Source of the DNA: Gemmatimonadota bacterium
Lineage (GTDB): Bacteria; Gemmatimonadota; Gemmatimonadetes; Longimicrobiales; Gaopeijiaceae
Length of the DNA stretch: 15,549 bases
Assembly: GCA_039587515.1 (NCBI GenBank)
Contig: JBDHII010000077.1
Span: 1-15,549 of the forward strand
Direction of reading: 5' to 3'
Shown: positions 1 to 15,549 of the stretch, one piece after another
Position numbering within the stretch: the first letter of the stretch is position 1
Layout: each line of letters begins with the position of its first letter
Notes under the pieces: generated by a model
What the model saw: only the letters and a program-made list of their open reading frames with translations
The model's database searches: none
What the model was told of the DNA's origin: nothing
Program-made: the position numbers and the translations under genes

Positions 1-382
1 CCGGCTTCTCGGCCCGGATCTTCAGGTGGAAGTCGTCGGCGACCAGATCGAGCGCCAGCGACTCCACGGAGAAGAGTGCGTACGCCAGCTGGGTCTCGTC
101 GCACTCGCCACGATTCCTGCGCTTGTCGAAGCTCAGCGTGTGCATGGCGTAGCGGAGGAGGGCGATCCGGTAGACGATCCAGTCGTCGCTCTCCTTGAGG
201 GAGAAGCAGCGTTGTCGGATGAGGCGAACGGCCGAGAGGATCTTTCGGAAGCGGAGATCCCACTTCGCGAACTTCAGCGTATCGGGGAGCTCGTCGGCTT
301 CGGACGGAATCCGCTGTGTGAGCAGGTACTCCTCGAAGACCCTGAGACGCGGCAGGTCGTCTGGGTCGAACGCCTTGCTCAT
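1..382 (-). CDS. Hypothetical protein, partial. Its N-terminus is at 382 and it runs off the left edge of the window.
   Basis: Hand translation of the reverse strand from an ATG at 382..380: MSKAFDPDDLPRLRVFEEYLLHQRIPSEADELPDTLKFAKWDLRFRKILSAVRLIRQRCFSLKESDD..., open to position 1. GC3-rich codon usage matches its neighbours. It starts 8 nt after the stop of the upstream APH-like gene. It is absent from the ORF track because no stop lies inside the window. I did not recognise a family. Confidence 0.45.
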   Translation of the reverse strand, partial: MSKAFDPDDLPRLRVFEEYLLTQRIPSEADELPDTLKFAKWDLRFRKILSAVRLIRQRCFSLKESDDWIVYRIALLRYAMHTLSFDKRRNRGECDETQLAYALFSVESLALDLVADDFHLKIRAEKP

Positions 383-390
383 GACGAACT

Positions 391-1830
391 TCACGTCGTT
401 CCGAGCTTGGCGAAGTCCAGTTCGAGAGGATGAACGCCGCTGTGGGTCCAGTCGATGAACCAGACGTTGTCGCCCTCGTCACAGATGACGTTCGCGAGGT
501 TCAGGTCGCCGTGTTGGAGGCAGGTCTCCGACTGGACCGAGTCGGGATTGCGCGTGACGAGCCGTACGAGACTCTCGAGCTGATCGAGATCCACGGGCTC
601 GACGGGCCCGCCCAGCTCCTCCACGTATCCCAGAATGAGCTCCCCGTTTTCGCGGAGCCATCGGACCTGCTGCTCGGACTGCAGCCCGAGGCCGCGGAAG
701 GGGGCGACGGGAGCCCGGTCCAGGGTGTTCCCGTAGAGCTTTCCGCAGAGCAGGTCGAGCGACTTCTCCAACCGGCTCAGAAAATGTTGGACGGAGGCCT
801 CTCCCGCGGCCGTCTCGAAGTGGTCCTGCAGCGTCGTGGGACGACCCTCCATGGCCGCCAGCTCCATGCCGACCCCGAGCAGCTCTCCCTCCGTGACGGG
901 ATAGCCGAACGTCGGCACGTGCTTGCCGAAGAAGTCCTTCACCTGATGGTACCCGTCCAACTCCCTGCGCATCTGGGAGAACGCGTCGATCTTGATCACC
1001 ATCGGCTCGGTCCGCGCGTCTCCCATCCAACCGTCGGCCAGGAAGAGAAGGCTGCCGCTGAAGCCGCCGGCCAGGGCCCGAAGGTGCGTGCGGGTCCAGT
1101 GCATGCAGATCATCTGCACGATCCGCTGCGCCTCGTCCGGCAGCTGTGCCTGCGCTTCCGGAGGCCCGATCTCGCAGGGCCGGGCAGCCTCGAGACCGGC
1201 CGCCGCCGGATCGACGTCCACCCAGCGGGCGGCTTCCTCGAGATCCAGGAGGACGCGCACCCCGGAGCGGGGAAGCGTGTGCCGGAGCGCGGCGAAATGC
1301 GCTTCCGATGTGGCGCTACCCACGAGATGGGGGCAGATCGCGACCCTCTCGAAACCCAGAACGCTCCTCAGGAAGGTCGCGACCGCCTGGACGCGCTTCT
1401 CGGTGTGGCAGCCGACGACGAGAAACGTCAGGTCCGCCTCACCCTTTTCGATGCTCCGGACCTCGGCTCCACTGACCTCCGACACGACCCGGAGGAAATC
1501 GCGCCAAGGAATCAGCCCGGGTGAGCAAGAGATGCTCGGCACGCCCTCGGCGAGCTCCTCGAGGGGTTCGACCCACTCGCTGAGCGTGCCGGCCGATTCG
1601 GAGTGCGCACCGGCGGACTCCGCCTCCTCTCGCAGGAGGATCAACCGTGTGCTCGCACCCGACTCGGCAGACGCCCGGATCAGGCGAGGGAGGGGCCCGT
1701 CCCCGTACGCCCGACCTCGACCCATGAGGCGGGCGATCTCCCGTGCGCCCAGATTCGACGGGAGCCCGTTGAACTGCTTCTCCGGGCTCAGCGTGGAACG
1801 GACCAGGCTGTCGGCGACGACGATGTTCAT
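391..1830 (-). CDS. Two-domain protein: an unidentified ~220-aa N-terminal domain plus a C-terminal APH/ChoK-fold phosphotransferase (aminoglycoside phosphotransferase / homoserine-kinase-II-like).
   Basis: ATG start at 1830. The C-terminal motifs are GGFSGSLLFLADG...VIKI (nucleotide-binding region), the Brenner motif HGDLNLANV (HGDxxxxN) and FIDWTHSG (the metal-binding D), which are diagnostic of the APH/ChoK kinase fold. The N-terminal half (MNIVVADSLV...LTFLVVGCHTEKRVQAVATFL...) did not match a family by eye. The stop at 391 is 8 nt before the next minus-strand ATG. Confidence 0.7.
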   Translation of the reverse strand: MNIVVADSLVRSTLSPEKQFNGLPSNLGAREIARLMGRGRAYGDGPLPRLIRASAESGASTRLILLREEAESAGAHSESAGTLSEWVEPLEELAEGVPSISCSPGLIPWRDFLRVVSEVSGAEVRSIEKGEADLTFLVVGCHTEKRVQAVATFLRSVLGFERVAICPHLVGSATSEAHFAALRHTLPRSGVRVLLDLEEAARWVDVDPAAAGLEAARPCEIGPPEAQAQLPDEAQRIVQMICMHWTRTHLRALAGGFSGSLLFLADGWMGDARTEPMVIKIDAFSQMRRELDGYHQVKDFFGKHVPTFGYPVTEGELLGVGMELAAMEGRPTTLQDHFETAAGEASVQHFLSRLEKSLDLLCGKLYGNTLDRAPVAPFRGLGLQSEQQVRWLRENGELILGYVEELGGPVEPVDLDQLESLVRLVTRNPDSVQSETCLQHGDLNLANVICDEGDNVWFIDWTHSGVHPLELDFAKLGTT

Positions 1831-1840
1831 GCGTTATGAC

Positions 1841-3151
1841 CTAGAGGATGCAGCCGTCCGACACCAGGTCGGCCAGCTTTTCGGACTTGTCAGACGAGAT
1901 ACGGCGGAGGACCTCTTTGAACTCCGGGTAATCCGCGCGCAGCCGATTGAAGGCCGTGCTCGGCAGGAAGAAGATGTCACAGTGACTCAAAGCGTACACC
2001 GAGCCGGTCCGGCGCTCCCCCAGCAACAGTGACAGGTCGCCGAAGTAGTCTCCTGCCTCGAATTCCCCGAAAGACTTTGTGTCGCCCTCACCCCTGATCG
2101 CAAGCCGGCCGCTACCGACGAAGTAGAGTCCGGTGGCCACCTCCCCCTCCCGCACGACGTAACTGCCGGGGACGAACACCTGGGGCTCGAGGTGCATGAG
2201 GAGCGCGTTGCGAAGCGGCTCATCGGCATGGGTGAAGAGGGGAACACGCTCCGTCAGGTCCCGGGTGAGATGGTAGAGGACGTCGAGGCGGATCGGGTCG
2301 GGCAGGTCCTCGAGAAACCGCTGGGTGCTCACCCCCCGGTGCCGATCCCAGAGGTACTCGTAGTAGGCCTGGACCTGGGCCTGCAGCTCGAGGGGAACGC
2401 CTCTGTTCTGCAGGTAGCGGTTCACGCCCTCGACGCGGTCCCAGAAGGTGGACTTCGCCGCGTCGATCGCGCGGACGAGCGAGGCGATGCTTCCGATGAT
2501 CAGCGCGTACATCGAGGCACCGACGATCATGACGACCAGCGTGAAGAGATACTCGGCGTTGCGCGATGGAGTGATGTCTCCGAATCCCACGGTCGTGGTC
2601 GTCACGAACCCCCAATAGAGCGAGCGAAGGTACTGGCTGCCGACGTCCAGCGACTCGATGCCCGCGAGAACCACCCAGGAGTCCGCCGGGAATCCCTCCA
2701 CGACCGCGACGAGAAACCACCCGCAGGCGATCCAGTGGATCAGGACGAAGACGCCCACGACGAGCTTCGTGATTCTCAGATAGCCGGTGTTCGTGGAGCG
2801 CAGTCGCTCCCAGCCCCGAAAGGCTCGGAAGAGTCGGCCGATGCGAAGGAGGCGATTGGTCCTGAGCAGGAGCGCGAGCGGGATCCCGCCCAACGTGGCC
2901 GCGGAGCCGAGGAAGAGGAGATCGATCGGAACGGTGCCCGCAACGTCTGTCCAGAAGCCCGAGCGGCGGTATCGCCGAGCGATGGCTTTACGGTCGTGGA
3001 CCTCGGCTCCCCCGGCTCGGAACGGCGTGCGAAAGCCGAGCCGAATGTCGATCAGAAAGGCGAGGTCCAGCAGGTAGACGATCAGGCTCCCGACGAGGCC
3101 GACCTGCCGAAAGAAGGCGATCTGGGCGGGCACCACGACGACCGTGGCCAA
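1841..3151 (-). CDS. Cyclic-nucleotide-gated K+ channel (6TM, CNG/HCN-like; SthK/LliK/MloK1 type).
   Basis: There is an S4-like arginine ladder (LLLRTNRLLRIGRLFRAFRGWERLR) and a K+ selectivity filter (TTTVGFGD). A C-linker follows with eukaryote-like CNG/HCN spacing (YYEYLWDRHRGVSTQRFLEDLPDPIRLDVLYHLTRDL...VPLF...QVFVPGSYVVREGEVATGLYFVGSGRLAI). The CNBD phosphate-binding cassette is present (FGEFEAGDYFGDLSLLLGERRTGSVYA). The start is TTG at 3151 with no SD. The frame stays open upstream but contains no other start codon. Confidence 0.85.
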   Translation of the reverse strand: MATVVVVPAQIAFFRQVGLVGSLIVYLLDLAFLIDIRLGFRTPFRAGGAEVHDRKAIARRYRRSGFWTDVAGTVPIDLLFLGSAATLGGIPLALLLRTNRLLRIGRLFRAFRGWERLRSTNTGYLRITKLVVGVFVLIHWIACGWFLVAVVEGFPADSWVVLAGIESLDVGSQYLRSLYWGFVTTTTVGFGDITPSRNAEYLFTLVVMIVGASMYALIIGSIASLVRAIDAAKSTFWDRVEGVNRYLQNRGVPLELQAQVQAYYEYLWDRHRGVSTQRFLEDLPDPIRLDVLYHLTRDLTERVPLFTHADEPLRNALLMHLEPQVFVPGSYVVREGEVATGLYFVGSGRLAIRGEGDTKSFGEFEAGDYFGDLSLLLGERRTGSVYALSHCDIFFLPSTAFNRLRADYPEFKEVLRRISSDKSEKLADLVSDGCIL

Positions 3152-3252
3152 GACCGCACCGGCGATGAAGAGGTCCCACCCGGCGCGAGATCTCGACCCC
3201 TCGAGGATCGGGGGGTTGGGACGAATCGGTGCCTCTGGGGCGACCTGCCCGC

Positions 3253-3585
3253 TCAGAAGCCCTCCAGCGCCTCGGCCTCGGAGGGGAAGACGGCGAAGAT
3301 CGTGCTGAACCCGGAGATCTCGAAGACTTCGGCCACCGTCTCGTTGAGGCCGCAGAGTCTCAGGTTTCCGCCGGTTCCCCGGAGCTTCTTGGCCGTGGCC
3401 AGCAGCACGCGGAGACCGGCGCTCGAGATGTAGTCGAGGTCGGTGAAGTCCACCAACACCTTCGCGACCCCCTGTGCGGCGAGGTCGTCGAGGCGCTCCT
3501 GTGCCTCGGGCGCGGTGTTGGTATCCAGGTTCCCCTCGACTTGCACGACGGTGACGCCGTCGGCCTCACGAAGTGAGATGTTCAC
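3253..3585 (-). CDS. Anti-sigma-factor antagonist (single STAS domain, RsbV/SpoIIAA-like).
   Basis: 110 aa. The motif ...LVDFTDLDYISSAGLRVLL... carries the phosphorylatable Ser context seen in SpoIIAA/RsbV. The GTG start at 3585 is preceded by a GAGGAGGA SD. GTGA overlaps the stop of the upstream PP2C-kinase gene. Confidence 0.85.
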   Translation of the reverse strand: MNISLREADGVTVVQVEGNLDTNTAPEAQERLDDLAAQGVAKVLVDFTDLDYISSAGLRVLLATAKKLRGTGGNLRLCGLNETVAEVFEISGFSTIFAVFPSEAEALEGF

Positions 3586-5279
3586 GCATCCTCCTCATCG
3601 GTTTCGATGCCAGAAAGGTATTTCACCAGGACCACCACGTTCCGGTCCGTACGTCGGGTGTAGGACACCTCGTCCATCAAGCTCTCGACGAGGTGGATGC
3701 CGAGACCGCCGATGTCGCGCTCGTCGATCTCCAGAGCGGTGTCCGGGCTCGCCCGCCCGAAGGGGTTGAACGGCTGCCCGTCGTCGGTCAGACGAACGGC
3801 GAGCCGATCCGACGAGAGCTCGATGTGGACGTCGATCACGTGCTCTTCGTCGTCGGTGTACGCATAGGAAATGACGTTGTTGAGCAAGTCGTCGAAGACG
3901 AGCTTCAAGCTTCGGCGGACCTTCTCCGGGAGGCCGTGCTCGGCCGAGAACGCTTCGAAGGCCTCGTTGACCCGGTCGATCTCCTCCAGACGGTTCGCGG
4001 CCTCGACGTGAAGCACGTGAATGTCCGCCGCCCCCCCGGCCCGCCCGACGAAGCGGACAGCGAGAACCGTCACGTCGTCCGCCTGCTCGGCCTCGGCCTG
4101 GAAGCGCCAGACGTCCTCGGTGGACGCCGCCACCATGTCCTCCACGGTCTCGAACGGCTTCGAGTCCAGGATCTCGACCAGACGGTCCTCTTCGTAGAGC
4201 GTGCCGTCCGGATCCATCGCCTCGGTCACGCCGTCCGTGTACAGGAAGACGAAGTCGCCCGACTCCAACTGGCCCTTGGACTCTCCGTAGACCAGCCCGT
4301 CGACCGCGCCGATCACCGGCCCGTGCCGCTTGTCGAGCCGGATGCTCTGACCGTCCGACCGCTTCAGGTACGGCGGGTTGTGGCCCGCGTTGGTGTAGAG
4401 GAACTCGCCGGTGCTCACATCCAGGATTCCGAGCCATAGCGTGACGAACATCGCCGAGTCGTTGTTCTGGGAGATCTCGTCGTTGACATGGGTCAGAATG
4501 CTCGCCGGGGAAAAGTCGTTCGTCGCCCGGGATTTGATCAGCGTCTTGGTGACGGCCATGAAGAGCGCGGCCGGGACGCCCTTCCCCGAAACGTCGCCCA
4601 CGCAAAAGCAGAATCGGTCTTCGTCGATCAGGAAGAAGTCGTAGAAGTCCCCGCCCACCTCCCTCGCCGGCTCCAGCGTGGCGAACACGGTGAAGTCGTT
4701 GCGGTGCGGGAACGGAGGGAACTCGAGTGGGAGCATGCTCATCTGAATGTCCCGCCCGATGTTCAGCTCGCTCTCCATGCGCTCCTTGGCCGTCGTCGTT
4801 CGACGCAGGTTGTCGAAAGACTCCTGCAGCTCGCGGTTCTTGACCGTGAGCTCGCCCATCAGCGCGTCGCGACTCTTCTCTTCCACCATCGCGCGCAAGG
4901 CCGCGAGCCGACGCTCCGACAGCGCCGCCTGATTCAGGCTGGCGAGATGCAAGCCGAGCCTGAGAGCGGGCTCTCCGTCCACGCGCACACGGTGCACGTT
5001 GTCGAAGAAGGCTGCCGCGAACTCCCCGTCGACCTCACGGTCGACGCCCACGAAATCGAGGACGAGTTCCGGCATCACCGCGTCCGGGAGGACCCGCACG
5101 TCGATGCGTCCCGCGTCCGACATGCGCTCCACGACTCTGTAGAGCTGTGAGGTCACCGAGGCGATTCGGCTCGCCAGCATTCGGTCCCCTGTCAGCTCCT
5201 CCAACACACGCTGGACCTTCCGGCGTGCGTCGGAAACGGAGCCGATCCCGCCCCCCGTGATCGTTCCGACGTCGATCAT
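3582..5279 (-). CDS. Three-part signalling protein: an unknown N-terminal domain (~150 aa), a PP2C phosphatase (SpoIIE/RsbU type) and a C-terminal RsbW/SpoIIAB-like GHKL serine kinase (anti-sigma-factor type).
   Basis: ATG at 5279. A coiled-coil lead-in (ELNIGRDIQMSMLP) precedes the PP2C metal-site motifs GGDFYDF, GDVSGKGVPAALFMA, YTDGVTEA and DDVTVLAV. The C-terminal HATPase_c motifs are NNVISYAY (N box), DDGQPFNP (D/G box) and GGLGIHLV (G box). ATGA overlaps the upstream gene and GTGA overlaps the downstream STAS gene. Confidence 0.85.
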   Translation of the reverse strand: MIDVGTITGGGIGSVSDARRKVQRVLEELTGDRMLASRIASVTSQLYRVVERMSDAGRIDVRVLPDAVMPELVLDFVGVDREVDGEFAAAFFDNVHRVRVDGEPALRLGLHLASLNQAALSERRLAALRAMVEEKSRDALMGELTVKNRELQESFDNLRRTTTAKERMESELNIGRDIQMSMLPLEFPPFPHRNDFTVFATLEPAREVGGDFYDFFLIDEDRFCFCVGDVSGKGVPAALFMAVTKTLIKSRATNDFSPASILTHVNDEISQNNDSAMFVTLWLGILDVSTGEFLYTNAGHNPPYLKRSDGQSIRLDKRHGPVIGAVDGLVYGESKGQLESGDFVFLYTDGVTEAMDPDGTLYEEDRLVEILDSKPFETVEDMVAASTEDVWRFQAEAEQADDVTVLAVRFVGRAGGAADIHVLHVEAANRLEEIDRVNEAFEAFSAEHGLPEKVRRSLKLVFDDLLNNVISYAYTDDEEHVIDVHIELSSDRLAVRLTDDGQPFNPFGRASPDTALEIDERDIGGLGIHLVESLMDEVSYTRRTDRNVVVLVKYLSGIETDEEDA

Positions 5280-6376
5280 CGCGTCTTGAAACGACAGACG
5301 ACCACGGTCGCGTCGTCGTGTCTCTTTCCGTATCGGCCCACGATCTTCTCGGCTACGGTTTCGGCCGACTGGTAGCGCAGCTGAGGGTAGTCGTCGAACG
5401 TCGTGCGGTCCGAGATGCCGTCCGTGTGAATGATCAGCACGTCTCCCTCGGTGAGCCGGGCTGAATCGACACGGACATTCTTGACCTGAGAGCCCACGGT
5501 GCCTGCCGTGGCCGTGAGCCGCAGGGCTCGCTCTCCCTCGAGTCGAAGGACCGTGTTCCCGACCGCGGCATAGCGTGTCGTTCCCGAAGACAGCTCGATC
5601 CAGCAGAGAGAGACGGCGGCGCCTACGGTCTCCCGAAGTCGCTCGTTCAGCTTCTTCATCAGGTGACCGAGATCCGAGGTGGGCTCGCGCCGCACGTACC
5701 GTGTCGCGGCCTTTGCCGCCCCGTTGGCCTCCCTTCCGTGGCCCAGGCCGTCGACCACCACGATGAGCACGCCGTCTTCCACTTCGGTGACCGCGACGCC
5801 GTCTCCGCTCACGAGCTCTCCGCGACAGGGCCGGTTCACGTACGCCACCTCGAGCGGCCGGCTCTCTGCATCACCGGCCGGAAAGAGCAGGTTGCCTCGA
5901 TCCGTTCCGCGTTCCGAGAAGGCCTCGCTCCCGGTGACGGCGGCGGGCAGCGAGACCCGCCTCGGAGGAGAGACGGATTCGAGCCACTTCTGCACGACCA
6001 CCGTCGTCCCCTCACCGGTCTTGGATTCGATCGAGAAGTCGTCGACCATCCGCCTGACCCCCGGCAACCCGAGGCCGAGCGTCCCGCTCGAGCTGAAGTG
6101 ATCTCGCAGGGCCTCCTCGACGTTCTCGATACCCGGCCCCCGATCGGCGACCGTGATCTGCATGCCGCGACGGCTGCCCGATTGCACCTCTTCGATCGTG
6201 ACGCGACCGAACTCGGCGTACTTGAGAATGTTTGTCGCCAGCTCCGACACGACGGTTCCGATCGAGCGACTCTGCAGCTCGTTGAACTCCATCTCGCGCG
6301 CGAACTGCGTTGCCGAAACCACGGCGTGGGTCACGTCCGGATCGGTCCGGATTCTTCGCACGGTTCTACTCGGCAT
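5276..6376 (-). CDS. Fusion protein: an RsbT-like serine kinase (N-terminal) joined to an RsbX-like PP2C phosphatase (C-terminal).
   Basis: The N-terminal ~135 aa align by eye to B. subtilis RsbT: SELATNILKYA...TIEEVQSGSRRGMQITVADRGPGIEN...GLGLPGVRRMVDDFSIESKTGEGTTVVVQKWL. The C-terminal half aligns to RsbX: VSGDGVAV...VVVDGLGHGREAN...AAVGNTV...DVLIIHTDGIS...DDATVVVC. The start I chose is the ATG at 6376, which overlaps the end of the RsbS gene by 11 nt (gATGccgagTAG). The Arg-rich extension in the ORF track (start 6532) looks out-of-frame and is probably not translated. Confidence 0.8.
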   Translation of the reverse strand: MPSRTVRRIRTDPDVTHAVVSATQFAREMEFNELQSRSIGTVVSELATNILKYAEFGRVTIEEVQSGSRRGMQITVADRGPGIENVEEALRDHFSSSGTLGLGLPGVRRMVDDFSIESKTGEGTTVVVQKWLESVSPPRRVSLPAAVTGSEAFSERGTDRGNLLFPAGDAESRPLEVAYVNRPCRGELVSGDGVAVTEVEDGVLIVVVDGLGHGREANGAAKAATRYVRREPTSDLGHLMKKLNERLRETVGAAVSLCWIELSSGTTRYAAVGNTVLRLEGERALRLTATAGTVGSQVKNVRVDSARLTEGDVLIIHTDGISDRTTFDDYPQLRYQSAETVAEKIVGRYGKRHDDATVVVCRFKTR

Positions 6377-6839
6377 CGTCCTCGTCGACCGACGTCGCCT
6401 CAGTGGGCGCCCCCGCCTCGAGCTCGGTATCCGCTTCAAGGTCGGACTCCCCCTCGCCCGCGGGCTCCGTACGGCGCAGCTCCGCCATGCGTGCGAAGGC
6501 ATCGTCGAGCGTCGCGGTGGCCTCCACACCACGCGTATCCGCTCCCAGGTCGATCAGGGCCGAGACCACGCCGGGCTGGAGGCCGGATACGACGGTCACG
6601 GCGCCGAGGAGCCGTGCCATCCGCATGGTGTCGCGAAGCGCCTGAAACTCGACCGAGTCCATCACCGTCACGCCCGACAGATCCAGAATGACACCGCGAG
6701 CTCCCGAAGCGCGGACGAACTCGAGCAGCTCGTTGCGGAAGGCGCTGAGAATCCGGTCGTCCAGATCCACCTGGATCGACGCGACCACGCACTCCTGGGC
6801 CAGCTGGAGCGGGATCTTCGACGCTTCCTCCGTACTCAT
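6366..6839 (-). CDS. rsbS: RsbS-like STAS protein (stressosome core antagonist) with an acidic C-terminal tail.
   Basis: GVILDLSGVTVMDSVEFQAL...LLGAVTVVSGLQPGVVSALIDLG aligns with the B. subtilis RsbS segment VVIDLTSVDMIDSFIAKVL...GIQPAVAVTLIELG and conserves the phospho-Ser. ATG at 6839. The start lies 2 nt after the rsbR stop. Confidence 0.85.
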   Translation of the reverse strand: MSTEEASKIPLQLAQECVVASIQVDLDDRILSAFRNELLEFVRASGARGVILDLSGVTVMDSVEFQALRDTMRMARLLGAVTVVSGLQPGVVSALIDLGADTRGVEATATLDDAFARMAELRRTEPAGEGESDLEADTELEAGAPTEATSVDEDDAE

Positions 6840-6841
6840 CT

Positions 6842-7753
6842 TCAGCGCGCGCCGCTTCCCTTTCGTCCGATCGTCTGAACCGCGTCGGCCAGCGCGTCGC
6901 GCATCGTCGCCGTCGTCTTCACCTCACCCACGTCGATCCCGAGGTCGACGATCGTCTGGGCGATGGCCGGCGAGACTCCGGAGATCGTCGTCTCACAGCC
7001 CATGAGCTTGGTCGCCCGGGTGATCTTGATGAGGTGGTTCGCCACGGCCGTATCCACGACTCCAACCCCGCTGATGTCGAGAATGAAGACGCGGGCCTGC
7101 GACTCGGCGATCTTGCCGAGCGTGGCGTTCATGATGTCCCGAGACCGCTTCGAATCGATGATTCCGACGATCGGCAGGAACAGGAGGCTCTCCCAGATCT
7201 GCGTCACCGGCGTCGACATCTCCATGAGCGACCGGGACTGGGCGGTCAGCGTCTGCTCGACGAGGTGATTGTAGGTGTCGACGACGATGGCCGTGTCGAG
7301 ATGCAAGAGCTTGATGACGGCATCGAGCGTGGGAGCCCGATCAGCATCCGCGAAATCCCCCTCACGGATGACCATGCTGAACAGCTCCTGAAACATGTTC
7401 ATCCCGGCGAAGTACGTGTTCAGCGGCAGTCCGATGCGGGCATGCGCCTCTCCGACGAGCCGGCGCCGCTCGACGTATTCCGCATCGACCGTCCCCGCCA
7501 TGAAGGCCTCCCAGTAGCCCTGTTGCAGGGATTGGACGCGCTTCAGCGTCTCGGGATCCGCGAAGAACTCGTCGTAGTCGGGGAGCTTGGCGAGCCACTC
7601 GTACCACTTGTCCACAAGCTCGTCCATTCGGGCCAAGGCCTGCTCCCCGAAGATACGAATCCGCTCCAGGCCTTCATCGTCGAGGCGATACAGCTCCAGG
7701 AGCGCCCTGTGATCGACATGATGGTCGCCCGTCGTTGCGTAGTGACCGGCCAT
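6842..7753 (-). CDS. rsbR: RsbR-like stressosome sensor: an N-terminal globin-coupled sensor (protoglobin-type) domain plus a C-terminal STAS domain.
   Basis: The C-terminus VFILDISGVGVVDTAVANHLIKITRATKLMGCETTISGVSPAIAQTIVDLGIDV is near-colinear with B. subtilis RsbRA (GVPVVDTMVAHHI...GIRPEIAQTIVNLGIEL), including the Thr phospho-sites. The N-terminal domain shows globin-sensor features (YWEAF..., VGEAHARIGLPLNTYFAG with a candidate proximal His). The start is the ATG at 7753 behind an AGGAGG SD (AGGAGGCGAGCTTTCAATG). The ORF-track extension to 8011 is Arg/Trp-rich out-of-frame junk. Confidence 0.8.
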   Translation of the reverse strand: MAGHYATTGDHHVDHRALLELYRLDDEGLERIRIFGEQALARMDELVDKWYEWLAKLPDYDEFFADPETLKRVQSLQQGYWEAFMAGTVDAEYVERRRLVGEAHARIGLPLNTYFAGMNMFQELFSMVIREGDFADADRAPTLDAVIKLLHLDTAIVVDTYNHLVEQTLTAQSRSLMEMSTPVTQIWESLLFLPIVGIIDSKRSRDIMNATLGKIAESQARVFILDISGVGVVDTAVANHLIKITRATKLMGCETTISGVSPAIAQTIVDLGIDVGEVKTTATMRDALADAVQTIGRKGSGAR

Positions 7754-7805
7754 TGAAAGCTCGCCTCCTGTGATGAAAGCCCCCGCCTCTGGCGGCAGGG
7801 TATCC

Positions 7806-9704
7806 TCAATTCTCGTGTTCGACTGCGATCTCGATGGCATCGCGAAGCGTGCGCGCCGTGACGATGCCGTGAATGTCCACGTTGCTCTCCGCCATCCGTG
7901 CGGCCATCTCCGGCCGCACCCCGGATATGATCGCCCGGGCCCCCAACAAGCCGGCCGAGCGCGCGACCTTGAGAAGCCCCTGGGCGACATCGTCGTCCAG
8001 GTTGGGCACACCCGTCAGATCCAGGATCGCGAACCGCGCACCCTTCTCGTGCAGCTGACTCGTCAGCGACTGGCGAAGCTGCTCACAGCGGGCCGTGTCG
8101 AGCTCGCCCACGAGAGGGAGCACGACCACGTCGTCGTGAATCGGGATGAGCGGGGTCGAGAGCGCTTCGATCGAGCGGTTTTGCCGATCGATCAGCTCTC
8201 GAAGCGAGACGCGCATCGCCTCGAAGCTGCCAGCCAGCTCCCCGATCTCGTCACCCCGATCGACTTCGACCTGGGCTTCGAGGTCGCCGCTCGCCAGTTG
8301 ACTCGCCGTGACGGAGAGCGCTCGGATCGGGCGCGTCAGATTTCCTGCGAACCAGACTGCGAGCGCACCGAGGAGCGGAAGAAGGAGCGCGACCCACAGG
8401 AGCATGCGATTGCGCTGAGCGACGACCGGCGAGAGCGCCTCCGCGGCGTCGATCTCACTCATCAAAACCCAATCCAGGTCTGGAATGCTCAGGGGTCGGA
8501 AGCTCGAGAACACCTCGACGTCCCGGTAGTCCGGAAAGCGGGCCACGCCCGTCTCGCCGCCGAGCGCGAGCTCCGTACCGCGGGTCCGGACGGGCTGGAG
8601 GCCTACGGCGCTCCCCTGCGCCTCGATGGACCGAACCGTTGCCGGAGGCACACCCGCCTCACCGATCGCCGTGAGATACGCCTCGACGTCCTCCACCAGG
8701 AACCTCGACTCGGTCCTCAGCCGGTAGTCGGGGCCTACGAGGTAGGACTCGCCGGACTCACCGAGCCCGGTCGCCTGCCAAGCCGCCCCGCTCGTCATCA
8801 CGTCGTTGATGCGGTCCAACGGAAGCTGGAAAACCAGAACGCCCAGGAGCTCGCCGTCCTGCATCACGGGTGAGGCGATGAAAGAAGCTTGGGCACCGTA
8901 GGAAGGAGCGTACGGCTCGAAGTCTTCGAGCCGCGTGAAAGCGGCGCTTCCGGCGGCCAGCGCAGCGCGGTAGACCGAAGCGAGGTTGGATTCTCGGTAC
9001 GGACCCGCCTCGAGCGTCGTGCCGAAGTCGACCTCTTTGAAAACCGAGTAGACGATGCGGTGCGTCTGCGCATCGACCAGGAAGACGTCGTAGTAGCCGA
9101 AGCGTTCCAGGAAGCTCCGGAGCAGCGGGTGATAGCGCCCATGCACCGCGTCGTACCGCGTGCCCGCTTCGGCACGGTCCAGCAGGTGCTTGGAGCCCAC
9201 AGCGAAGGGGTTCGAGCTCACGTAGAGGTATTGGAGTAGACGCCCCAGTCCGTCCGATGGCCAATATTCCGAGAGCGGGCCGGCATCGTCCGAATTGGCC
9301 GAGAGCCTCGGAAGAAACTCGTCCTGGTAGTAGAGCCTCAGGCCGAGGTCGAGGTCACTCGCCGACGGCCCGGAGGCCAGAAGCTCGTTCTCCAGCGTTC
9401 GCGCCGCGGCAGTAAACTCGCGGAGCGCCTCCACGACCATGAGGTTCTCGGACTGGGTGACCACCTGGTCGCGGATCGTCTCGAAGTAGCCCTCGATCTG
9501 CCGGCCCTTGAGCTCCCGGACCGACGTCAGTAGATCGAGGGCCTGCTGCTCGGAGGTGGAGACGCCGAGGCGGTAGGCCACGGCAGCCATCGTCCCGACC
9601 GAGATGATCGTTACGATCGCCAGCACCGAGAGGACGCGCAGGCGGATCGAGAGATCCCTCAGACCCTGGCTCGATGCGCCGGCTCGCTCAGACTCTGGTG
9701 ACAC
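7806..9704 (-). CDS. Membrane-anchored sensor: TM1, a ~380-aa periplasmic Cache-like (double PAS-like) domain, TM2, a HAMP domain and a C-terminal RsbR/RsbS-type STAS domain.
   Basis: The hydrophobic segments are VLSVLAIVTIISVGTMAAVAY and MLLWVALLLPLLGALAVWFAG. HAMP is indicated by LTRPIRALSVTASQLASGDLEAQVEVDRGDEIGELAGSFEAMRVSL. The STAS motif is FAILDLTGVPNLDDDVAQGL...AIISGVRPEMAARMAES, which is stressosome-type but has Asp in place of the phosphorylatable Ser/Thr. The GTG start at 9704 overlaps the upstream small ORF by 17 nt. Confidence 0.75.
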   Translation of the reverse strand: MSPESERAGASSQGLRDLSIRLRVLSVLAIVTIISVGTMAAVAYRLGVSTSEQQALDLLTSVRELKGRQIEGYFETIRDQVVTQSENLMVVEALREFTAAARTLENELLASGPSASDLDLGLRLYYQDEFLPRLSANSDDAGPLSEYWPSDGLGRLLQYLYVSSNPFAVGSKHLLDRAEAGTRYDAVHGRYHPLLRSFLERFGYYDVFLVDAQTHRIVYSVFKEVDFGTTLEAGPYRESNLASVYRAALAAGSAAFTRLEDFEPYAPSYGAQASFIASPVMQDGELLGVLVFQLPLDRINDVMTSGAAWQATGLGESGESYLVGPDYRLRTESRFLVEDVEAYLTAIGEAGVPPATVRSIEAQGSAVGLQPVRTRGTELALGGETGVARFPDYRDVEVFSSFRPLSIPDLDWVLMSEIDAAEALSPVVAQRNRMLLWVALLLPLLGALAVWFAGNLTRPIRALSVTASQLASGDLEAQVEVDRGDEIGELAGSFEAMRVSLRELIDRQNRSIEALSTPLIPIHDDVVVLPLVGELDTARCEQLRQSLTSQLHEKGARFAILDLTGVPNLDDDVAQGLLKVARSAGLLGARAIISGVRPEMAARMAESNVDIHGIVTARTLRDAIEIAVEHEN

Positions 9705-10158: not shown

Positions 10159-11178
10159 TCAGAGCTCCTTGGGGATCTCGGCGGTCGACGTGGACTCGCC
10201 TCCGCGCGCCATGCGCTCGAAGTCGACGCCGGTAGCCGTCTTCATCTGCTCGATCATCGAAACGGCACTCCCCGTGAGGTTGCGAACGTAGTTCGGCAGC
10301 CCCTCGCCGCCCTGCTCCCCCCCTCCGTCGAGGATCGTGAGCTTGTCCACGCGCAGGTTGTCCGCTACCACGCGCGTGACCTTCTCGATCAGGTCCGGGA
10401 ACATGTGGATGAGGAAGAGCTCGTGGGTCTTGCCCTCGTCCCATTCCGCCCTCATCAGCTGGACGGCGTCGGCCGTGGCCTTCCCCTGCTCCCGGATGCG
10501 GGCCGCTTCTCCTTCAGCCCGAAGCCGCTCCGCCTCCGCCATGGCCGTCGCGGGGATCACCGTGTCGGCCTCATGCCTCCGCTTGCTCAACTCGGCCCGG
10601 ATGGACTCGAGCTCGACCTCGCGCTCGACGCGGGCGATCTGCCCGGCGACCTGGGCGCGCTCGCGTGCCTCGTTCTCGGACGCTTTGAGGTTGGCCCGCT
10701 CGACCTCCAGCGCGTTTTCCTTCTGGATGACCAGCTGCTCGGCGGCGATCTCCGCCTCCCGCCCGACGCGACGCTGCTCGGCCGACACCTCCCTCGCCTG
10801 AGCTTCCGCCTCCGCCTCCGCGATCTGAGCGTCGCGGTGCACCTCGGCATTACGCTTGCGTCCGATGGCCTGCAGGTAGCCCGCCTCGTCCGAGAGGTCG
10901 TGGATCTGGAAGAAGTCCAGCACGATGCCGAGGCCGGCGAGCTCCTCACGCGCACGCTCCGCCACTTCCTGGGCCAGCTCGAGCCGGCGCTCATTGGCCT
11001 CTTCCGGTCGGACGCCCGCGATCACGCCGCGCAACGCACCCTCCAGCACCTGCTGCGCCGTCTTGTCGATGGCCTCTACGCCCTTGCCGAGGAACCGCTC
11101 GATGCCCGCCTCGAGCCCCTGCTCCTCCCGACCGGCGAGCTTCACGTTCGCACGGCCCTCGATGTCGACCGGGATCAT
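10159..11178 (-). CDS. Flotillin-family protein, C-terminal portion (the end of the SPFH domain plus Ala/Glu-rich coiled-coil repeats).
   Basis: IERFLGK...EGALRGVIAGVRPEEANERR..LAQEVAERAREELAGLGIVLDFFQIHDLSDEAGYLQAIGRKRNAEVHRDAQIAEAEAEAQA... matches the flotillin (FloT/YqiK) SPFH end and EA-repeat region. It begins at an ATG that overlaps (ATGA) the stop of the 66-aa N-terminal fragment. It is probably one gene interrupted by a frameshift (see findings). Confidence 0.75.
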   Translation of the reverse strand: MIPVDIEGRANVKLAGREEQGLEAGIERFLGKGVEAIDKTAQQVLEGALRGVIAGVRPEEANERRLELAQEVAERAREELAGLGIVLDFFQIHDLSDEAGYLQAIGRKRNAEVHRDAQIAEAEAEAQAREVSAEQRRVGREAEIAAEQLVIQKENALEVERANLKASENEARERAQVAGQIARVEREVELESIRAELSKRRHEADTVIPATAMAEAERLRAEGEAARIREQGKATADAVQLMRAEWDEGKTHELFLIHMFPDLIEKVTRVVADNLRVDKLTILDGGGEQGGEGLPNYVRNLTGSAVSMIEQMKTATGVDFERMARGGESTSTAEIPKEL

Positions 11179-11375
11179 CCCCAGAAGCCCCGACCACCCC
11201 GGATCAGCCGATAGCCGACGGTCGTGCCGTCCTTGGCCTGACGCTTCCGGCCCGAAATGATCACGACCTCGTTGGGCTGGCAGATCACGATGTTGGCCTT
11301 GATGAAGATCACCAGGGCCAGAACGGCCAGCGCCCCCACACCAAGGTAGATCCCGATAAGCTGTGCTTGATCCAT
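11175..11375 (-). CDS. Flotillin N-terminal fragment (a TM anchor plus the start of the SPFH domain), 66 aa.
   Basis: ATG at 11375 with a GAAGGAA SD, 19 nt after the glnA stop. LIGIYLGVGALAVLALVIFI (TM) is followed by IVICQPNEVVIISGRK...GYRLIRGGRGFWG, the canonical flotillin N-terminus. It ends at a TGA embedded in ATGA. Confidence 0.6.
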   Translation of the reverse strand: MDQAQLIGIYLGVGALAVLALVIFIKANIVICQPNEVVIISGRKRQAKDGTTVGYRLIRGGRGFWG

Positions 11376-11394
11376 GATGGTTCCTTCGGCCGCG

Positions 11395-12831
11395 CTACGC
11401 GTTGAAGTACAGAGCGAACTCCCCGGGGTGAGGCCGGAGGCGCACGTAGTCGATCTCGTTCTTTCGCTTGTAGTCGATCCAGGTTTCGATCAGGTCTTCA
11501 GTGAAAACGCCGTCCCGGACCAGGAAGTCGTAATCCGCTTCGAGCGCCGAGATCGCCTCGTCCAGGGTCCCCGGAGTGCGCTCGATCTCCCTTCCTCCCG
11601 AGCCCGCCGCAAGCTCGTAGATGTCTTCGTCCACGGGGTCGGCAGGCTCCAGCCCACGCCGAATCCCGTCGATTCCGGCGCACATGATCGCCGCGAAGCT
11701 GAGATAGGGGTTGCACGACGGATCTGGCGTGCGGAACTCGATCCGCTTCGACTTCGGACCCCCGGTCATCGTCGGGATGCGGATGCACGCGCTCCGGTTC
11801 CGTCCCGAATAGAGCAGGTTCATCGGGGCCTCGTAGCCCGGTACGAGCCTCCGATAGGAGTTCGTCGTCGGACAGCAGATCCCACAGAGAGCTCGGGCGT
11901 GCTCCAGTAGCCCCCCGATGAAGTGGACCGCCAGCGGGCTCAGGTCACCGTAGGTGCCCGCCTGGTAGAACACGTTCTTCCCCTCTTTCGAGAGGCTGAT
12001 GTTGTGGTGCATGCCCGAGCCGTTTTCCTGAAGGAGAGGCTTGGGCATGAAAGTGGCCGTCTTCCCGTACCGGGCCACCACGTTCTTGACCACGTACTTG
12101 TACATGATCGAGGCGTCGGCCTGGCTCAGCAGCGGACCGAACCGGAAGCCGATCTCGCACTGGCCCGCAGCACCCACCTCGTGATGGTGCAGCTCCGGCT
12201 GTAGGCCGACCCGCTTGAGCACGTGGGAGATCTTGGAGCGGAGGTTGTTGTACTGATCGATCGGTGGCGCCGAGAAGTACGCGCCACGCTGCGCGGCTCG
12301 GTGTCCCAGATTCGCGCTGTCACCCTTCTCGCCCGTCGCCCAGGACGCCGCGGAGCTGTTCAGGAAGAAGTACCCGTGCTGGGTGGCCTGATCGAAGCGG
12401 ACCTCGTCGAACACGAAAAACTCGATCTCGGGGCCCAGGTAGGCCGTGTCGGCGATCCCGAGCGAGCGCACGAGCTGCTCGGCCCGACGTGCGACCGAAC
12501 GCGGATCGCGCGAGAAGGTGTAGCGCCCGTTCGGGTCGACGATGTCACAGAAGACCGACAGTGCCGGATCGTCGAAGAAGGGATCCTCGAAGACCGAAGA
12601 CGCGTCGGGAATCAGGAGCATGTCGCTCTGGTTGATCCTCGTGAAGCCGCGGACCGAGGAGCCGTCGAAGGCCATGCCGTTGCGGAACAGGGCCTCGTCC
12701 ACCAGCTCGGCCGGCAGCGTGAGGTGCTGAAGCGTTCCGAAGAGATCCACGAACTTCAGGTCCAGGAACTGGATCTCGCGCTCGCCGATCATGCGGACGA
12801 GGTCGCGCGGGCTGGTTGGATGCCTGGTCAT
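11395..12831 (-). CDS. glnA: Glutamine synthetase, type I.
   Basis: 478 aa. The GS-I signatures are present, including GSGMHHNISL, NPY..., and the N-terminal beta-grasp and catalytic-domain layout. ATG at 12831 behind a GAGGA SD that overlaps the glnK stop. Confidence 0.95.
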   Translation of the reverse strand: MTRHPTSPRDLVRMIGEREIQFLDLKFVDLFGTLQHLTLPAELVDEALFRNGMAFDGSSVRGFTRINQSDMLLIPDASSVFEDPFFDDPALSVFCDIVDPNGRYTFSRDPRSVARRAEQLVRSLGIADTAYLGPEIEFFVFDEVRFDQATQHGYFFLNSSAASWATGEKGDSANLGHRAAQRGAYFSAPPIDQYNNLRSKISHVLKRVGLQPELHHHEVGAAGQCEIGFRFGPLLSQADASIMYKYVVKNVVARYGKTATFMPKPLLQENGSGMHHNISLSKEGKNVFYQAGTYGDLSPLAVHFIGGLLEHARALCGICCPTTNSYRRLVPGYEAPMNLLYSGRNRSACIRIPTMTGGPKSKRIEFRTPDPSCNPYLSFAAIMCAGIDGIRRGLEPADPVDEDIYELAAGSGGREIERTPGTLDEAISALEADYDFLVRDGVFTEDLIETWIDYKRKNEIDYVRLRPHPGEFALYFNA

Positions 12832-12839
12832 CGAGGTCC

Positions 12840-13175
12840 TCAGTAGAGGGCCCGGGAGCCGCGCTCGCCGGTCCAGACAGTGACCACGTCCTGAAGCTCC
12901 AGAACGAAGATCTTACCCGAGCCACCGCTGTCCATGCAGCCCCTCGAGATCGCCTCTATCGCTCGCTCGAGGTTCGCGTCGTTGACGGCGACCTCGAGGC
13001 GAATCCGCTGAAAGAGAGAGACCTCCTTCTTCACGCCCCGGTACGTCTGCTGCTCGGTCCGAGAGGCAGTGCCCATGACGGAGGTTGCCGTCATGTGACG
13101 GACTTCGGTGTCGAACAGCGCCTGCTTGACGGAAGGAAGCTGCTCAGGCTTGATCAGCGCGACGATCATCTTCAT
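12840..13175 (-). CDS. glnK: Nitrogen regulatory protein PII (GlnK/NrgB-like).
   Basis: 111 aa. MKMIVALIKP..., a T-loop ending ...TYRGVKKEV (the B. subtilis NrgB-like YRGVKIE type), and GSGKIFV (B-loop, G[DS]GKIFV). ATG with a GGAGA SD, 18 nt after the amtB stop. Confidence 0.9.
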   Translation of the reverse strand: MKMIVALIKPEQLPSVKQALFDTEVRHMTATSVMGTASRTEQQTYRGVKKEVSLFQRIRLEVAVNDANLERAIEAISRGCMDSGGSGKIFVLELQDVVTVWTGERGSRALY

Positions 13176-13193
13176 GAGAAGGTCTCCACGCCT

Positions 13194-14504
13194 CTAGTCG
13201 GTGGTGAAGATCTGGAACCCGCCGTACGACTCGATTCCGTGCTCGTCGATGTCGAGGCCGCGCAGCTCGGTCTCCTTCGAGACGCGCAGGCCCAGAACGG
13301 AGTCGATCGACTTGAACACGACCCACATGGCCAGAACCGTGAAGCCCAGGCAGGCGATGACGCCCAGCGTCTGGGTGCCCAGCGGTCCGAAGCCACCCCC
13401 CATGAAGAGCCCGTCGCTCGTCGCTCCGAAGGCCTCCCGGCCCCAGAGCCCCACGGCCAGCGTTCCCCAGATTCCGCAGATCCCGTGGACCGCCACCGCC
13501 CCGACCGGATCATCGACCCGAATCGCGTCGATCCATGCGATTCCGTATACGCAGAGGATACCGGCGATGGCCCCGATCCAGAGCGCTGCTCCAGGGCTGA
13601 CGGCGGCACAGGGCGCCGTGATGCCGACGAGTCCGGCCAGAGCCCCGTTGAGGGCGAGAAGCAGGTCCGGCTTCTCGTACTTGATCCAGCTGACCACCAT
13701 CGCCGCGACTGCCCCGATCGAGGGCGCGAGCGTCGTGTTGATCGCGACCCGCGCGACCACGTCCGGCTCTCCCATCCCCAGCGTCGAGCCGGCGTTGAAG
13801 CCGTACCACCCGAACCAGAGGATGAAGACACCGAGCGAAGCCAGCGGGAGGCTGTGCCCTCCAATGGCGTTGGGTGATCCGTCCGCGTTGAACTTTCCGA
13901 TACGCGGACCGAGAACCCACGCACCGACCAGGCCGGTCGCACCTCCGACGGCGTGTACGACCGTCGAGCCGGCGAAATCGTGAAAGCCCAGCCCGCTGAG
14001 CCAGCCGCCTCCCCACACCCAGTGACCGACGATCGGATAGATGAAGGCGGAGAGGATGAAGGAGTAGGCGAGGTACGAGGTGAACTTCATCCGCTCTGCG
14101 ACCGCACCCGCTACGATCGTGGCCGCCGCACCCGCGAATACCGCCTGGAACAGCCAGAACACTTCGACCGGCAGGCCCTCCACGGGTGACTCCACCCCCA
14201 CCAGGAACCACCCTTCAGTTCCGAAGAGCAGCCCCTCCGACCCGTACATGATGGCGTATCCGAAGACGAAGTAGGCCAGAGCGGCGAAGCAGAAGTCCAG
14301 GAGGTTCTTCATCAGAACGTTCCCGGCGTTCTTGGTCCGCACGAGGCCGGCCTCGAGCACGCTGAACCCGGCCTGCATGAAGAAGACGAGGATCGCGGCC
14401 AGCAGAATCCACAGCGTGCTCACGCTGTCGAACCCGCTCGCCTCCTGAACTGCTGGCAGGGCTGGATTCAAGTCGAAGAATCCCACACGAAAGGCAAGAG
14501 CCAT
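13194..14504 (-). CDS. amtB: Ammonium transporter (Amt family).
   Basis: 436 aa and 11-12 TM. The conserved Amt motifs include DFAGSTVVHAVGG and HG..G........; ATG at 14504. Confidence 0.95.
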   Translation of the reverse strand: MALAFRVGFFDLNPALPAVQEASGFDSVSTLWILLAAILVFFMQAGFSVLEAGLVRTKNAGNVLMKNLLDFCFAALAYFVFGYAIMYGSEGLLFGTEGWFLVGVESPVEGLPVEVFWLFQAVFAGAAATIVAGAVAERMKFTSYLAYSFILSAFIYPIVGHWVWGGGWLSGLGFHDFAGSTVVHAVGGATGLVGAWVLGPRIGKFNADGSPNAIGGHSLPLASLGVFILWFGWYGFNAGSTLGMGEPDVVARVAINTTLAPSIGAVAAMVVSWIKYEKPDLLLALNGALAGLVGITAPCAAVSPGAALWIGAIAGILCVYGIAWIDAIRVDDPVGAVAVHGICGIWGTLAVGLWGREAFGATSDGLFMGGGFGPLGTQTLGVIACLGFTVLAMWVVFKSIDSVLGLRVSKETELRGLDIDEHGIESYGGFQIFTTD

Positions 14505-14631: not shown

Positions 14632-15459
14632 TCAGCCGTCCCAGGGCACGCGATAGAGCGAAACCGGCTCAGGAAAGCCTTTCAGCTCCGCCGTGCCACA
14701 GACCTCGAACGGGAGGTTCTTGCCGAGGCAGAGCTCCCGAACGACGCCGGCCGCCAGGATCTCCCCGCTCTCGGCCTCGTCACAGACCCGGGCTGCGAGG
14801 TTCACCACCGAGCCGAAGATGTCGCTGCCGCGAGAGACGGGCTCGCCTGCACTCAGTCCGATGCGGATGTGGAGCGCATGCTCGGGATGGGCCTCCCGAT
14901 GATCGGCGAACGCACGCTGCGTGTCGCGGGCGCAGGCCACGGCCGCCGTGGCATCGGCGAAGGAAGCGATGGCGCCATCTCCCGTGTGCTTCACCTTGCG
15001 TCCGTGATGCCGATGAATCTGCCCGCGCAGCAGGTGATCGTGTGCCTCCATCAGCTCCATCATCTCGTGGTCGCCGAGCTCCTGCACCAGCGCCGTGGAC
15101 CCCACGAGGTCGGTGAACATGAGGGTTCGGAAGGCGGAGACAGGCTCGCCCATCGACCCGATCGCAGCGCCCAGGTCGTCGAAGCTCCCGCCGCCGAGGA
15201 AGGCGGCCACGAGCTCGTCCTCGACGCTGATGATCTCGTCCGCCACGAGCCCGTGCGCCTTGCGATGAACCGCGTGACAGGCCTCCTCGTTCGGCGCCTC
15301 CACCAAGCAGCACACCGTACCGCGCTTCTCGTCGAACCAGTACTTGAGGTACTTGACGCCGTGGGCTTCCTGGGCCTCCAGATCGGCGATGTGCCCCTCA
15401 CGGATGGATTCCGGCGTGGCACCTTCCAGGTTGCGATGGATGTCGAGAAAAAGCGGCAC
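14632..15459 (-). CDS. Class III adenylate/guanylate cyclase with an N-terminal DUF4242-like (SCO4226-type) domain.
   Basis: A GTG start at 15459 gives MPLFLDIHR..., the canonical DUF4242 N-terminus, behind an AAGGGAGGA SD. The ORF track's upstream start at 15528 is probably over-extended. The cyclase motifs are FTDLVGSTAL, HTGDGAIASF, RIGLSAGEPV and GSVVNLAARV. Confidence 0.8.
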   Translation of the reverse strand: MPLFLDIHRNLEGATPESIREGHIADLEAQEAHGVKYLKYWFDEKRGTVCCLVEAPNEEACHAVHRKAHGLVADEIISVEDELVAAFLGGGSFDDLGAAIGSMGEPVSAFRTLMFTDLVGSTALVQELGDHEMMELMEAHDHLLRGQIHRHHGRKVKHTGDGAIASFADATAAVACARDTQRAFADHREAHPEHALHIRIGLSAGEPVSRGSDIFGSVVNLAARVCDEAESGEILAAGVVRELCLGKNLPFEVCGTAELKGFPEPVSLYRVPWDG

Positions 15460-15549
15460 GAATCCTCCCTTGATGTTTGGGCGTCGAGGATCATGGTCAG
15501 GGGCGATGCCAAGATCAAGGCGAGGCACGGCACGGGCGACTGGCCGGCA

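Follow-up and report, generated by a model that had tools for sequence, protein, structure and literature searches.

Nudix domains of the NUDT9 type have been described as the standalone human enzyme NUDT9 and, fused to an ion channel, as the NUDT9-H domain of TRPM2. NUDT9 bearing a RILGEE mutation is inactive, and NUDT9-H of human TRPM2, which carries RILRQE, binds ADP-ribose (ADPR) without hydrolysing it (PMC6461439). A further arrangement is that of the Nudix-related transcriptional regulator NrtR, where the Nudix domain controls a DNA-binding domain. The kinases of the TCAD9/APH clan, including maltokinase (Mak), glucosamine kinase, APH(3') and MTR kinase, share a bilobal fold with a Gly-rich loop, a Lys, a Glu, an H-x-D-x4-N motif and a metal-binding Asp, and the partner-switching modules of the RsbU/V/W type, known from Bacillus sigma-B and Vibrio SypE/SypA, combine an RsbV-like STAS protein bearing the Ser of an ISSAGL motif with PP2C and RsbW-like domains. 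The locus compared with these systems here lies on a contig of a Gemmatimonadota bacterium (JBDHII010000077.1, assembly GCA_039587515.1), the entire 15,549 bp of which were analysed and are referred to as the window. The gene in question occupies positions 1..1830 of the minus strand and encodes the first ~70% (about 610 codons) of a kinase protein, as judged by comparison of its frame-corrected translation with ~860-aa homologues. These combine an isochorismatase/nicotinamidase-like, an APH-type kinase and a NUDT9-like domain. The gene runs off the end of the contig, which removes the last ~250 aa, presumably including the NUDT9-like domain; as the window is the whole contig, there is no further sequence to its left. 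A search of the literature found no paper on this domain architecture and no characterised member, and TCAD9 appeared only in lists of kinase-like families.

A reading of the same DNA made from its letters alone, the sequence-only reading, had seen three genes here: a channel, an APH-fold kinase and a partial gene for a protein of unknown function downstream of it. The open reading frame (ORF) of the kinase is indeed present. It spans 391..1830 on the minus strand, starts with ATG, encodes 479 aa ending in ...HGDLNLANVICDEGDNVWFIDWTHSGVHPLELDFAKLGTT before the stop, carries the motifs HGDLNLAN and FIDW, and scores above the Pfam cut-offs for TCAD9 (PF19974; 61.1 bits against a cut-off of 40) and APH (PF01636; 37.6 bits against 23.2). 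The spacing had also been given correctly, the stop codon TGA lying at 393..391 and the next ATG at 382, 8 nt on, but the frame that begins there encodes the C-lobe of the same kinase (NDVKFVMSKAF...HLKIRAEKP, at 1..400) and not a separate gene. Three-frame translation reveals this frame to be open already upstream of the TGA, and comparison of the DNA with seven relatives (loci L001, L007-L011 and L055) places a single-base deletion at 401..402. Where the window reads CTCG-GAAC, the seven relatives read CTCGAGAAC; in wider context they read AAGCTCGAGAACGACGTGAAG and the window AAGCTCG-GAACGACGTGAAG, so that one A is missing between bases 402 and 401, and the contig sequence at the site is CTCGGAAC. 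This deletion generates the false TGA. The corrected join is predicted as ...LDFAKL(E)NDVKFVMSKAF..., and LDFAKLENDVKFVMSKDF is precisely what stands in the closest homologues.

Restoring the base yields a 610-aa product. In a search that returned 399 matches (120 of them listed), its entire length (100%) is matched by single ~860-aa proteins at 55-75% identity. The TCAD9 score rises from 61.1 bits for the 479-aa ORF to 90.9 bits for the frame-corrected product, and the match now reaches profile position 429 of 429. No stop interrupts the 133 codons that follow the frameshift, which share 83.5% identity with the orthologue P0002, compared to 80.5% for the part of the kinase that precedes it. 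Among 67 loci scored from species-representative genomes, there is none in which the orthologue is encoded as two separate genes. A module of channel, kinase and a distinct third protein is thus extremely improbable. Mechanical ORF calling does give the stop and the new ATG, and the 479-aa product is stored in the database as a protein in its own right (P0001); against this, the one-base deletion accounts for the stop, not one full-length homologue is split at this point, and the Pfam kinase profile, like the single homologues, runs on across the break. What had been proposed as the third gene is part of the same kinase, whose steadiest partner is a gene of the IMPase family (43/52 loci), with the channel an optional one. 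We therefore hold with high confidence that 1..1830 is part of a single gene with a three-domain anatomy, in which the N-terminal domain (aa 1-225, predicted to be non-catalytic) is encoded by 1156..1830 and the kinase domain upstream of the frameshift by 403..1155, the latter assigned from its Pfam matches to TCAD9 and APH and from its motifs. An error of sequencing or assembly, and not a pseudogene, is the most likely source of the internal stop, because a second conserved gene of the contig is also frameshifted, making two indels in 15.5 kb. This second case is the SPFH/flotillin gene (10159..11444, minus strand), broken near 11181..11220 with its N-terminal part in frame -2 and the remainder in frame -1. 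In the relatives L007, L009 and L010, SPFH/flotillin is encoded by one ORF of ~510-545 aa.

The kinase domain displays the full set of catalytic features of its clan. On the minus strand, a Gly-rich loop GGFSGS (1068..1051) is followed by VIKID with the ATP-binding Lys280 (999..985), MRRE with the helix-C Glu290 (972..949), the catalytic loop HGDLNLAN (aa 440-447, with H440, D442 and N447; 513..490) and FIDW (aa 458-461, with the metal-binding Asp460; 459..448). The six catalytic residues scored (K, E, H, D, N and D) show no variation among 48 orthologues. Sugar kinases are the best Foldseek matches of the domain, and the nearest solved folds include maltokinase (4u94, E 4.5e-8), glucosamine kinase, APH(3')-Ia, MTR kinase, aminopropanol kinase, N-acetylhexosamine kinase and ChoK-like proteins. 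The C-terminal half of the 479-aa ORF is accordingly as APH/ChoK-like as had been claimed, with matches to both Pfam families and with small-molecule and lanthipeptide kinases as the closest structures. Judged by its conserved residues, the kinase domain is catalytically intact and of the APH type, with a fold compatible with either a small-molecule or a peptide substrate. TCAD9 is listed as a kinase-like family by KINtaro, and the kinase protein matches no curated family in NCBIfam. The protein departs from TCAD9 in that the profile is matched mainly over its C-terminal third (61-91 bits, compared to 188 bits for a paralogue in locus L005), and the domain is flanked by isochorismatase-like and NUDT9-like domains and lies outside the vWA-MoxR "ternary" context.

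The N-terminal half of ~220 aa had matched nothing that the sequence-only reading could recognise. This holds for Pfam, where aa 1-225 of the window's protein give no match at E <= 0.1, and a profile search of the PDB with the domain reached only E 0.27, but the fold can be identified as the three-layer α/β/α fold of the isochorismatase/cysteine hydrolases (PF00857), the family of the nicotinamidase PncA and of YcaC. Paralogues of the protein alone reach the Pfam isochorismatase cut-off, at 34.8 and 27.6 bits, and the N-terminal domain of the L005 paralogue aligns with that of the window over 201 aa (E 2e-5). A phmmer search of 1.84 billion cluster representatives with the domain returned only 106 clusters, nearly all of the same architecture. 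The domain differs from PncA and YcaC in the residues on which their chemistry is built. In the segment GCHTEKR (1413..1393, minus strand), Arg146 occupies the position of the catalytic Cys of G-x-x-T-x-x-C, and this position holds Arg in 42/48 orthologues, Met in 3, His, Gln or Glu in 1 each and Cys in 0/48; the nucleophilic Cys is also absent throughout the wider alignment of N-terminal domains. A nicotinamidase-like RDxHDP...GxH segment is kept in more distant members, and in the window's clade a variable acidic loop stands in place of the metal-binding D-x-H...H. These replacements suggest that the N-terminal domain is a pseudo-enzyme or a ligand-binding domain.

The L005 paralogue (L005:10615-12924, plus strand) lies directly after the orthologue of that locus and combines the isochorismatase (34.8 bits) and TCAD9 (188 bits) matches with a DSP-PTPase domain of the Tc-R-P, PTP-SAK and PTP-NADK families. 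Since the DSP-PTPase takes the place of the NUDT9-like domain, the isochorismatase-like and TCAD9 core appears to accept different C-terminal domains that handle phosphates or nucleotides. A similar paralogue is found in L069, downstream of the kinase gene of that locus.

Over their C-terminal ~250 aa, the orthologues align with NUDT9, including its N-terminal cap, and with TRPM2 NUDT9-H. A profile built from 26 orthologues matches human NUDT9 (1q33) at E 2e-23 and TRPM2 NUDT9-H at E 4e-20 to 1e-14 over ~230 residues, and precomputed Pfam assignments for this part comprise NUDT9_N (PF25969) and NUDIX (PF00293). The orthologue motif RQTDHAW(V/I)E parallels PRNTDNAWME of NUDT9, and Gx5E/Arg of the Nudix domain is kept in 47/48 orthologues. 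The Nudix box itself is R(V/I)(L/M)xx(E/D) and not the canonical REUXEE: its position 2 is V, I, A, L, T or S and never Glu (0/48), so that the Mg-binding Glu is lost, and position 5 is Glu in only 4/48. The losses in R(V/I)(L/M)xxE are the same as those of human TRPM2 RILRQE. The Joint Genome Institute (JGI) name of the homologues, "ADP-ribose pyrophosphatase", is probably wrong as an activity, because the Mg-binding Glu that NUDT9 needs is absent in 48/48, and it is more likely that the domain is a nucleotide-binding module. Compared with NUDT9 and TRPM2, this version is bacterial and is fused to a kinase instead of standing alone or being fused to a channel, and its binding of ADPR is a prediction; compared with NrtR, the Nudix domain is attached to a kinase in place of a DNA-binding domain.

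The 67 loci are spread over ~12 phyla, with 27 in Gemmatimonadota, 10 in Gammaproteobacteria, 7 in Acidobacteriota, 4 each in Planctomycetota, Myxococcota and Bacteroidota, and the remainder in others. For counts of neighbouring genes, 52 or 40 of the loci were eligible, depending on the neighbour. An IMPase-family gene lies within 400 nt downstream of the kinase gene, on the same strand, in 43/52, and somewhere in the locus in 47/52; a STAS gene is found anywhere in the locus in 31/40, a SpoIIE-HATPase gene in 33/40, SPFH in 21/40, GlnA in 19/40 and Amt in 16/40. Of channel, kinase and third gene, whose co-occurrence the sequence-only reading had proposed to check, only the first pair recurs. 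A cyclic nucleotide (cNMP)-gated channel gene immediately precedes the kinase gene in 18/52 relatives (14 Gemmatimonadota, 2 Planctomycetota, 1 Acidimicrobiia and 1 unclassified), and a separate third gene in none of the 67 loci. The channel is an optional but recurrent insert, mostly in Gemmatimonadota, and the STAS gene immediately precedes the kinase gene in 13 of the loci that lack it. The IMPase retains the GEES, DPIDGT and WDxxAG motifs and scores far below the cut-off of all NCBIfam equivalogs (HisN 87 against 275, CysQ 66 against 229). One protein, P0157 (1014 aa), has an RsbW-like HATPase_c_2 domain fused to the N-terminus of a complete isochorismatase-like/TCAD9/NUDT9 protein. A second candidate fusion, of kinase and IMPase in P0144 (1228 aa), was rejected, as BLASTP shows Arg-rich, out-of-frame junk between the two parts, the product of read-through of two adjacent frameshifted genes.

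In the close relative L001, the kinase gene is followed by the IMPase-family gene (L001:10715-11539) and then by a gene for a 428-aa TrkA_N (RCK/NAD-binding) protein (L001:11536-12822, plus strand), which follows the IMPase gene in 15/41 relatives. Together with the K+ channel, this protein hints at a theme of K+ homeostasis.

Within the window, all long, database-supported ORFs lie on the minus strand, and the kinase is the last visible member of the series. In order of transcription it is preceded by genes for an SCO4226-like domain fused to an adenylate cyclase, Amt, P-II, GlnA, SPFH, dCache-HAMP-STAS, protoglobin-STAS, RsbS-like STAS, HATPase-SpoIIE, SpoIIE-HATPase_c_2, an RsbV-like STAS protein and the cNMP-gated K+ channel. 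The sequence-only reading was right about the channel (1841..3151), which matches Pfam Ion_trans (87 bits), cNMP_binding (63 bits) and Ion_trans_2 and bears a TVGFGD filter (2593..2576) and a cNMP-binding FGD...RRTGS segment (2044..2000), and right to place the kinase gene 10 nt after it, the channel stop TAG lying at 1843..1841 and the kinase ATG at 1830. Upstream of the channel, an RsbV-type single-domain STAS protein of 110 aa (3253..3585; Pfam STAS 90 bits) carries the phosphorylatable-Ser motif DYISSAGL and is preceded by a fusion of PP2C (SpoIIE, 183 bits) to an RsbW-like HATPase_c_2 domain (88 bits; 3582..5279). The genes of 5276..9704 form a stressosome-like sensor set, identified by Pfam as HATPase_c-SpoIIE (5276..6532), a 157-aa RsbS-like STAS (6366..6839), a protoglobin-STAS that may sense gas or redox state (about 6842..7723) and a dCache-HAMP-STAS (7806..9704); the two PP2C/HATPase fusions of the window have opposite domain orders. 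The gene order of this sensor layer recurs in L001, L007-L009 and others. As called mechanically, the ORFs 6842..8011 (389 aa, compared to 293 aa in orthologues) and 5276..6532 (418 aa, compared to 367 aa) are too long, and their true starts probably lie further downstream.

These genes share with the RsbU/V/W modules the RsbV-like STAS protein with its ISSAGL Ser and the PP2C and RsbW-like domains, here fused as in SypE, with RsbR/RsbS-like STAS sensors upstream. They differ from those modules in that no sigma factor gene occurs in the window and the conserved downstream genes encode the kinase, the IMPase and often a K+ channel. A search of 1..4000 found no promoter-like or terminator-like site, which is consistent with a single operon and otherwise uninformative. 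Further upstream are the Amt, P-II, GlnA and SPFH genes (11395..14504) and, at 14632..15528, the gene of a class III adenylate/guanylate cyclase whose N-terminal domain is SCO4226-like (nickel-responsive protein-like). The linkage to Amt, P-II, GlnA and SPFH is also seen in L005, L010, L046, L049, L051 and L060-L065, and thus spans the window together with Acidobacteriota, Planctomycetota, Bacteroidota and Gammaproteobacteria. The cyclase is encoded on the same strand as the channel and could supply its ligand. As a conserved supplier it was rejected, having no homologue in 73 related loci.

The anatomy of the protein and the company that its gene keeps suggest a mechanism in which the kinase would be the output of a partner-switching cascade that has no sigma factor gene nearby. 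A nucleotide derived from nicotinamide adenine dinucleotide (NAD), ADPR or similar, bound by the two pseudo-enzyme domains, would set the activity of the kinase, and the RsbW-like and STAS partners would do so in addition or instead. The analogy of RsbW-sigma pairs, together with the P0157 fusion, suggests that the kinase protein may be bound by the RsbW-like domain and that this binding may be relieved by the STAS protein. The kinase would phosphorylate a hydroxyl of a small metabolite, perhaps whichever nucleotide or sugar the NUDT9-like domain binds; the IMPase encoded next door would remove that phosphate, and the K+ channel, where present, would serve as a parallel output of the same operon gated by cyclic nucleotides. 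We assign this explanation, anatomy and mechanism together, a probability of about 0.55. The mechanism taken as a whole is tentative. Slightly more doubtful is its most specific form, in which an APH kinase is gated by ADPR or another NAD-derived nucleotide through dead NUDT9-like and nicotinamidase-like domains, acts as a sigma-independent, stressosome-like output, forms with the IMPase a kinase/phosphatase cycle that acts on a small phosphorylated messenger, and is co-regulated with the channel and the ammonium-assimilation genes.

Several observations weigh against this explanation. What is proposed for the substrate, the ligand and the coupling to partner switching derives solely from domain content and gene order. 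The NUDT9-like domain lies outside the window and is placed here by way of the orthologue P0002 (75% identical) and almost every ~860-aa homologue, and a few homologues of ~610-620 aa (P0028 and P0076), possibly truncated calls, lack it. The third Glu of the Nudix box (position 6) is E or D in 35/48 orthologues, which makes residual hydrolase activity conceivable, and the fold neighbours of the kinase include the lanthipeptide kinases TvaE and LxmK, which makes a peptide or protein substrate conceivable. The model of the full-length protein is of moderate quality (pLDDT 75, pTM 0.53) and does not fix the geometry between domains. All 67 host genomes are uncultured metagenome-assembled genomes (MAGs), and the frameshift could be a real and very recent inactivating mutation.

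The strongest competitor, although itself unlikely, is a protein (Ser/Thr) kinase in a partner-switching pathway that acts on some protein, be it the STAS protein, the K+ channel or a different one, and to which the IMPase is functionally unrelated. The lanthipeptide kinases noted above would suit such an enzyme, but the loop HGDLNxxN is without the Lys of the HRDLKxxN of protein kinases, and the segment that follows IDW, PxELDFAKLE, is of the APH/ChoK type. Sugar kinases lead the Foldseek matches, and the most conserved neighbour, ahead of the STAS gene, encodes the IMPase (43/52), a phosphatase of small-molecule type. Somewhat less probable again is a metabolic enzyme of NAD/ADPR salvage or of osmolyte (inositol or sugar-phosphate) metabolism, whose flanking domains would be catalytic with altered chemistry and whose signalling neighbourhood would be incidental. 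The nicotinamidase, ADPR pyrophosphatase and IMPase/NADP-phosphatase-type folds are, it is true, all at home in the metabolism of NAD or sugar phosphates, the JGI name points the same way, and the third Nudix Glu (35/48), Gx5E/Arg (47/48) and the nicotinamidase-like D-x-H...H of more distant members are retained. Set against these are the absence of the nucleophilic Cys from all members, the absence of the Mg-binding Glu in 48/48, the same change that inactivates NUDT9 (PMC6461439), the lack of a match to any NCBIfam equivalog, and a linkage to STAS and PP2C-RsbW genes that persists across ~12 phyla.

A component of anti-phage defence or biological conflict, a role that TCAD9, short in Pfam for "ternary complex associated domain", might imply, is very unlikely. 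The TCAD9 match does exceed the Pfam cut-off, and domains related to NAD and ADPR are common in defence systems. Active kinases of the APH superfamily have, moreover, been described as rare effectors in biological-conflict systems (Kaur et al. 2020, PMC7159879); it is presumably to these kinases that Pfam later gave the name TCAD9, which is absent from that paper. PADLOC, however, recognised neither the kinase protein nor the paralogue nor the IMPase, and vWA, MoxR and STAND genes are absent from the window and from L001 and L005. The orthologues are 50-75% identical across phyla and keep a stable synteny with GlnA, Amt, P-II and SPFH, a pattern typical of housekeeping signalling and not of fast-evolving defence islands.

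The three-domain combination is uncharacterised and widespread, and represents neither a new fold nor a new principle. Its delineation corrects an annotation artefact, in which a 479-aa fragment is stored as a protein and its orthologues are labelled "ADP-ribose pyrophosphatase", and defines a conserved family with a stable neighbourhood in ~12 phyla of bacteria represented only by MAGs, many of them seemingly recovered from marine or sediment metagenomes. Should the pseudo-enzyme domains sense a ligand, the family would provide a bacterial case of NAD/ADPR status feeding into a kinase, and a concrete output for partner-switching cascades that have no sigma factor. A dead NUDT9 domain that recurs beside an ion channel gene has its parallel in TRPM2 and may hold a clue to the origin of that sensor module; were gating by ADPR to prove true, these proteins would constitute a bacterial parallel to the ligand sensor NUDT9-H of TRPM2, and conceivably its forerunner.

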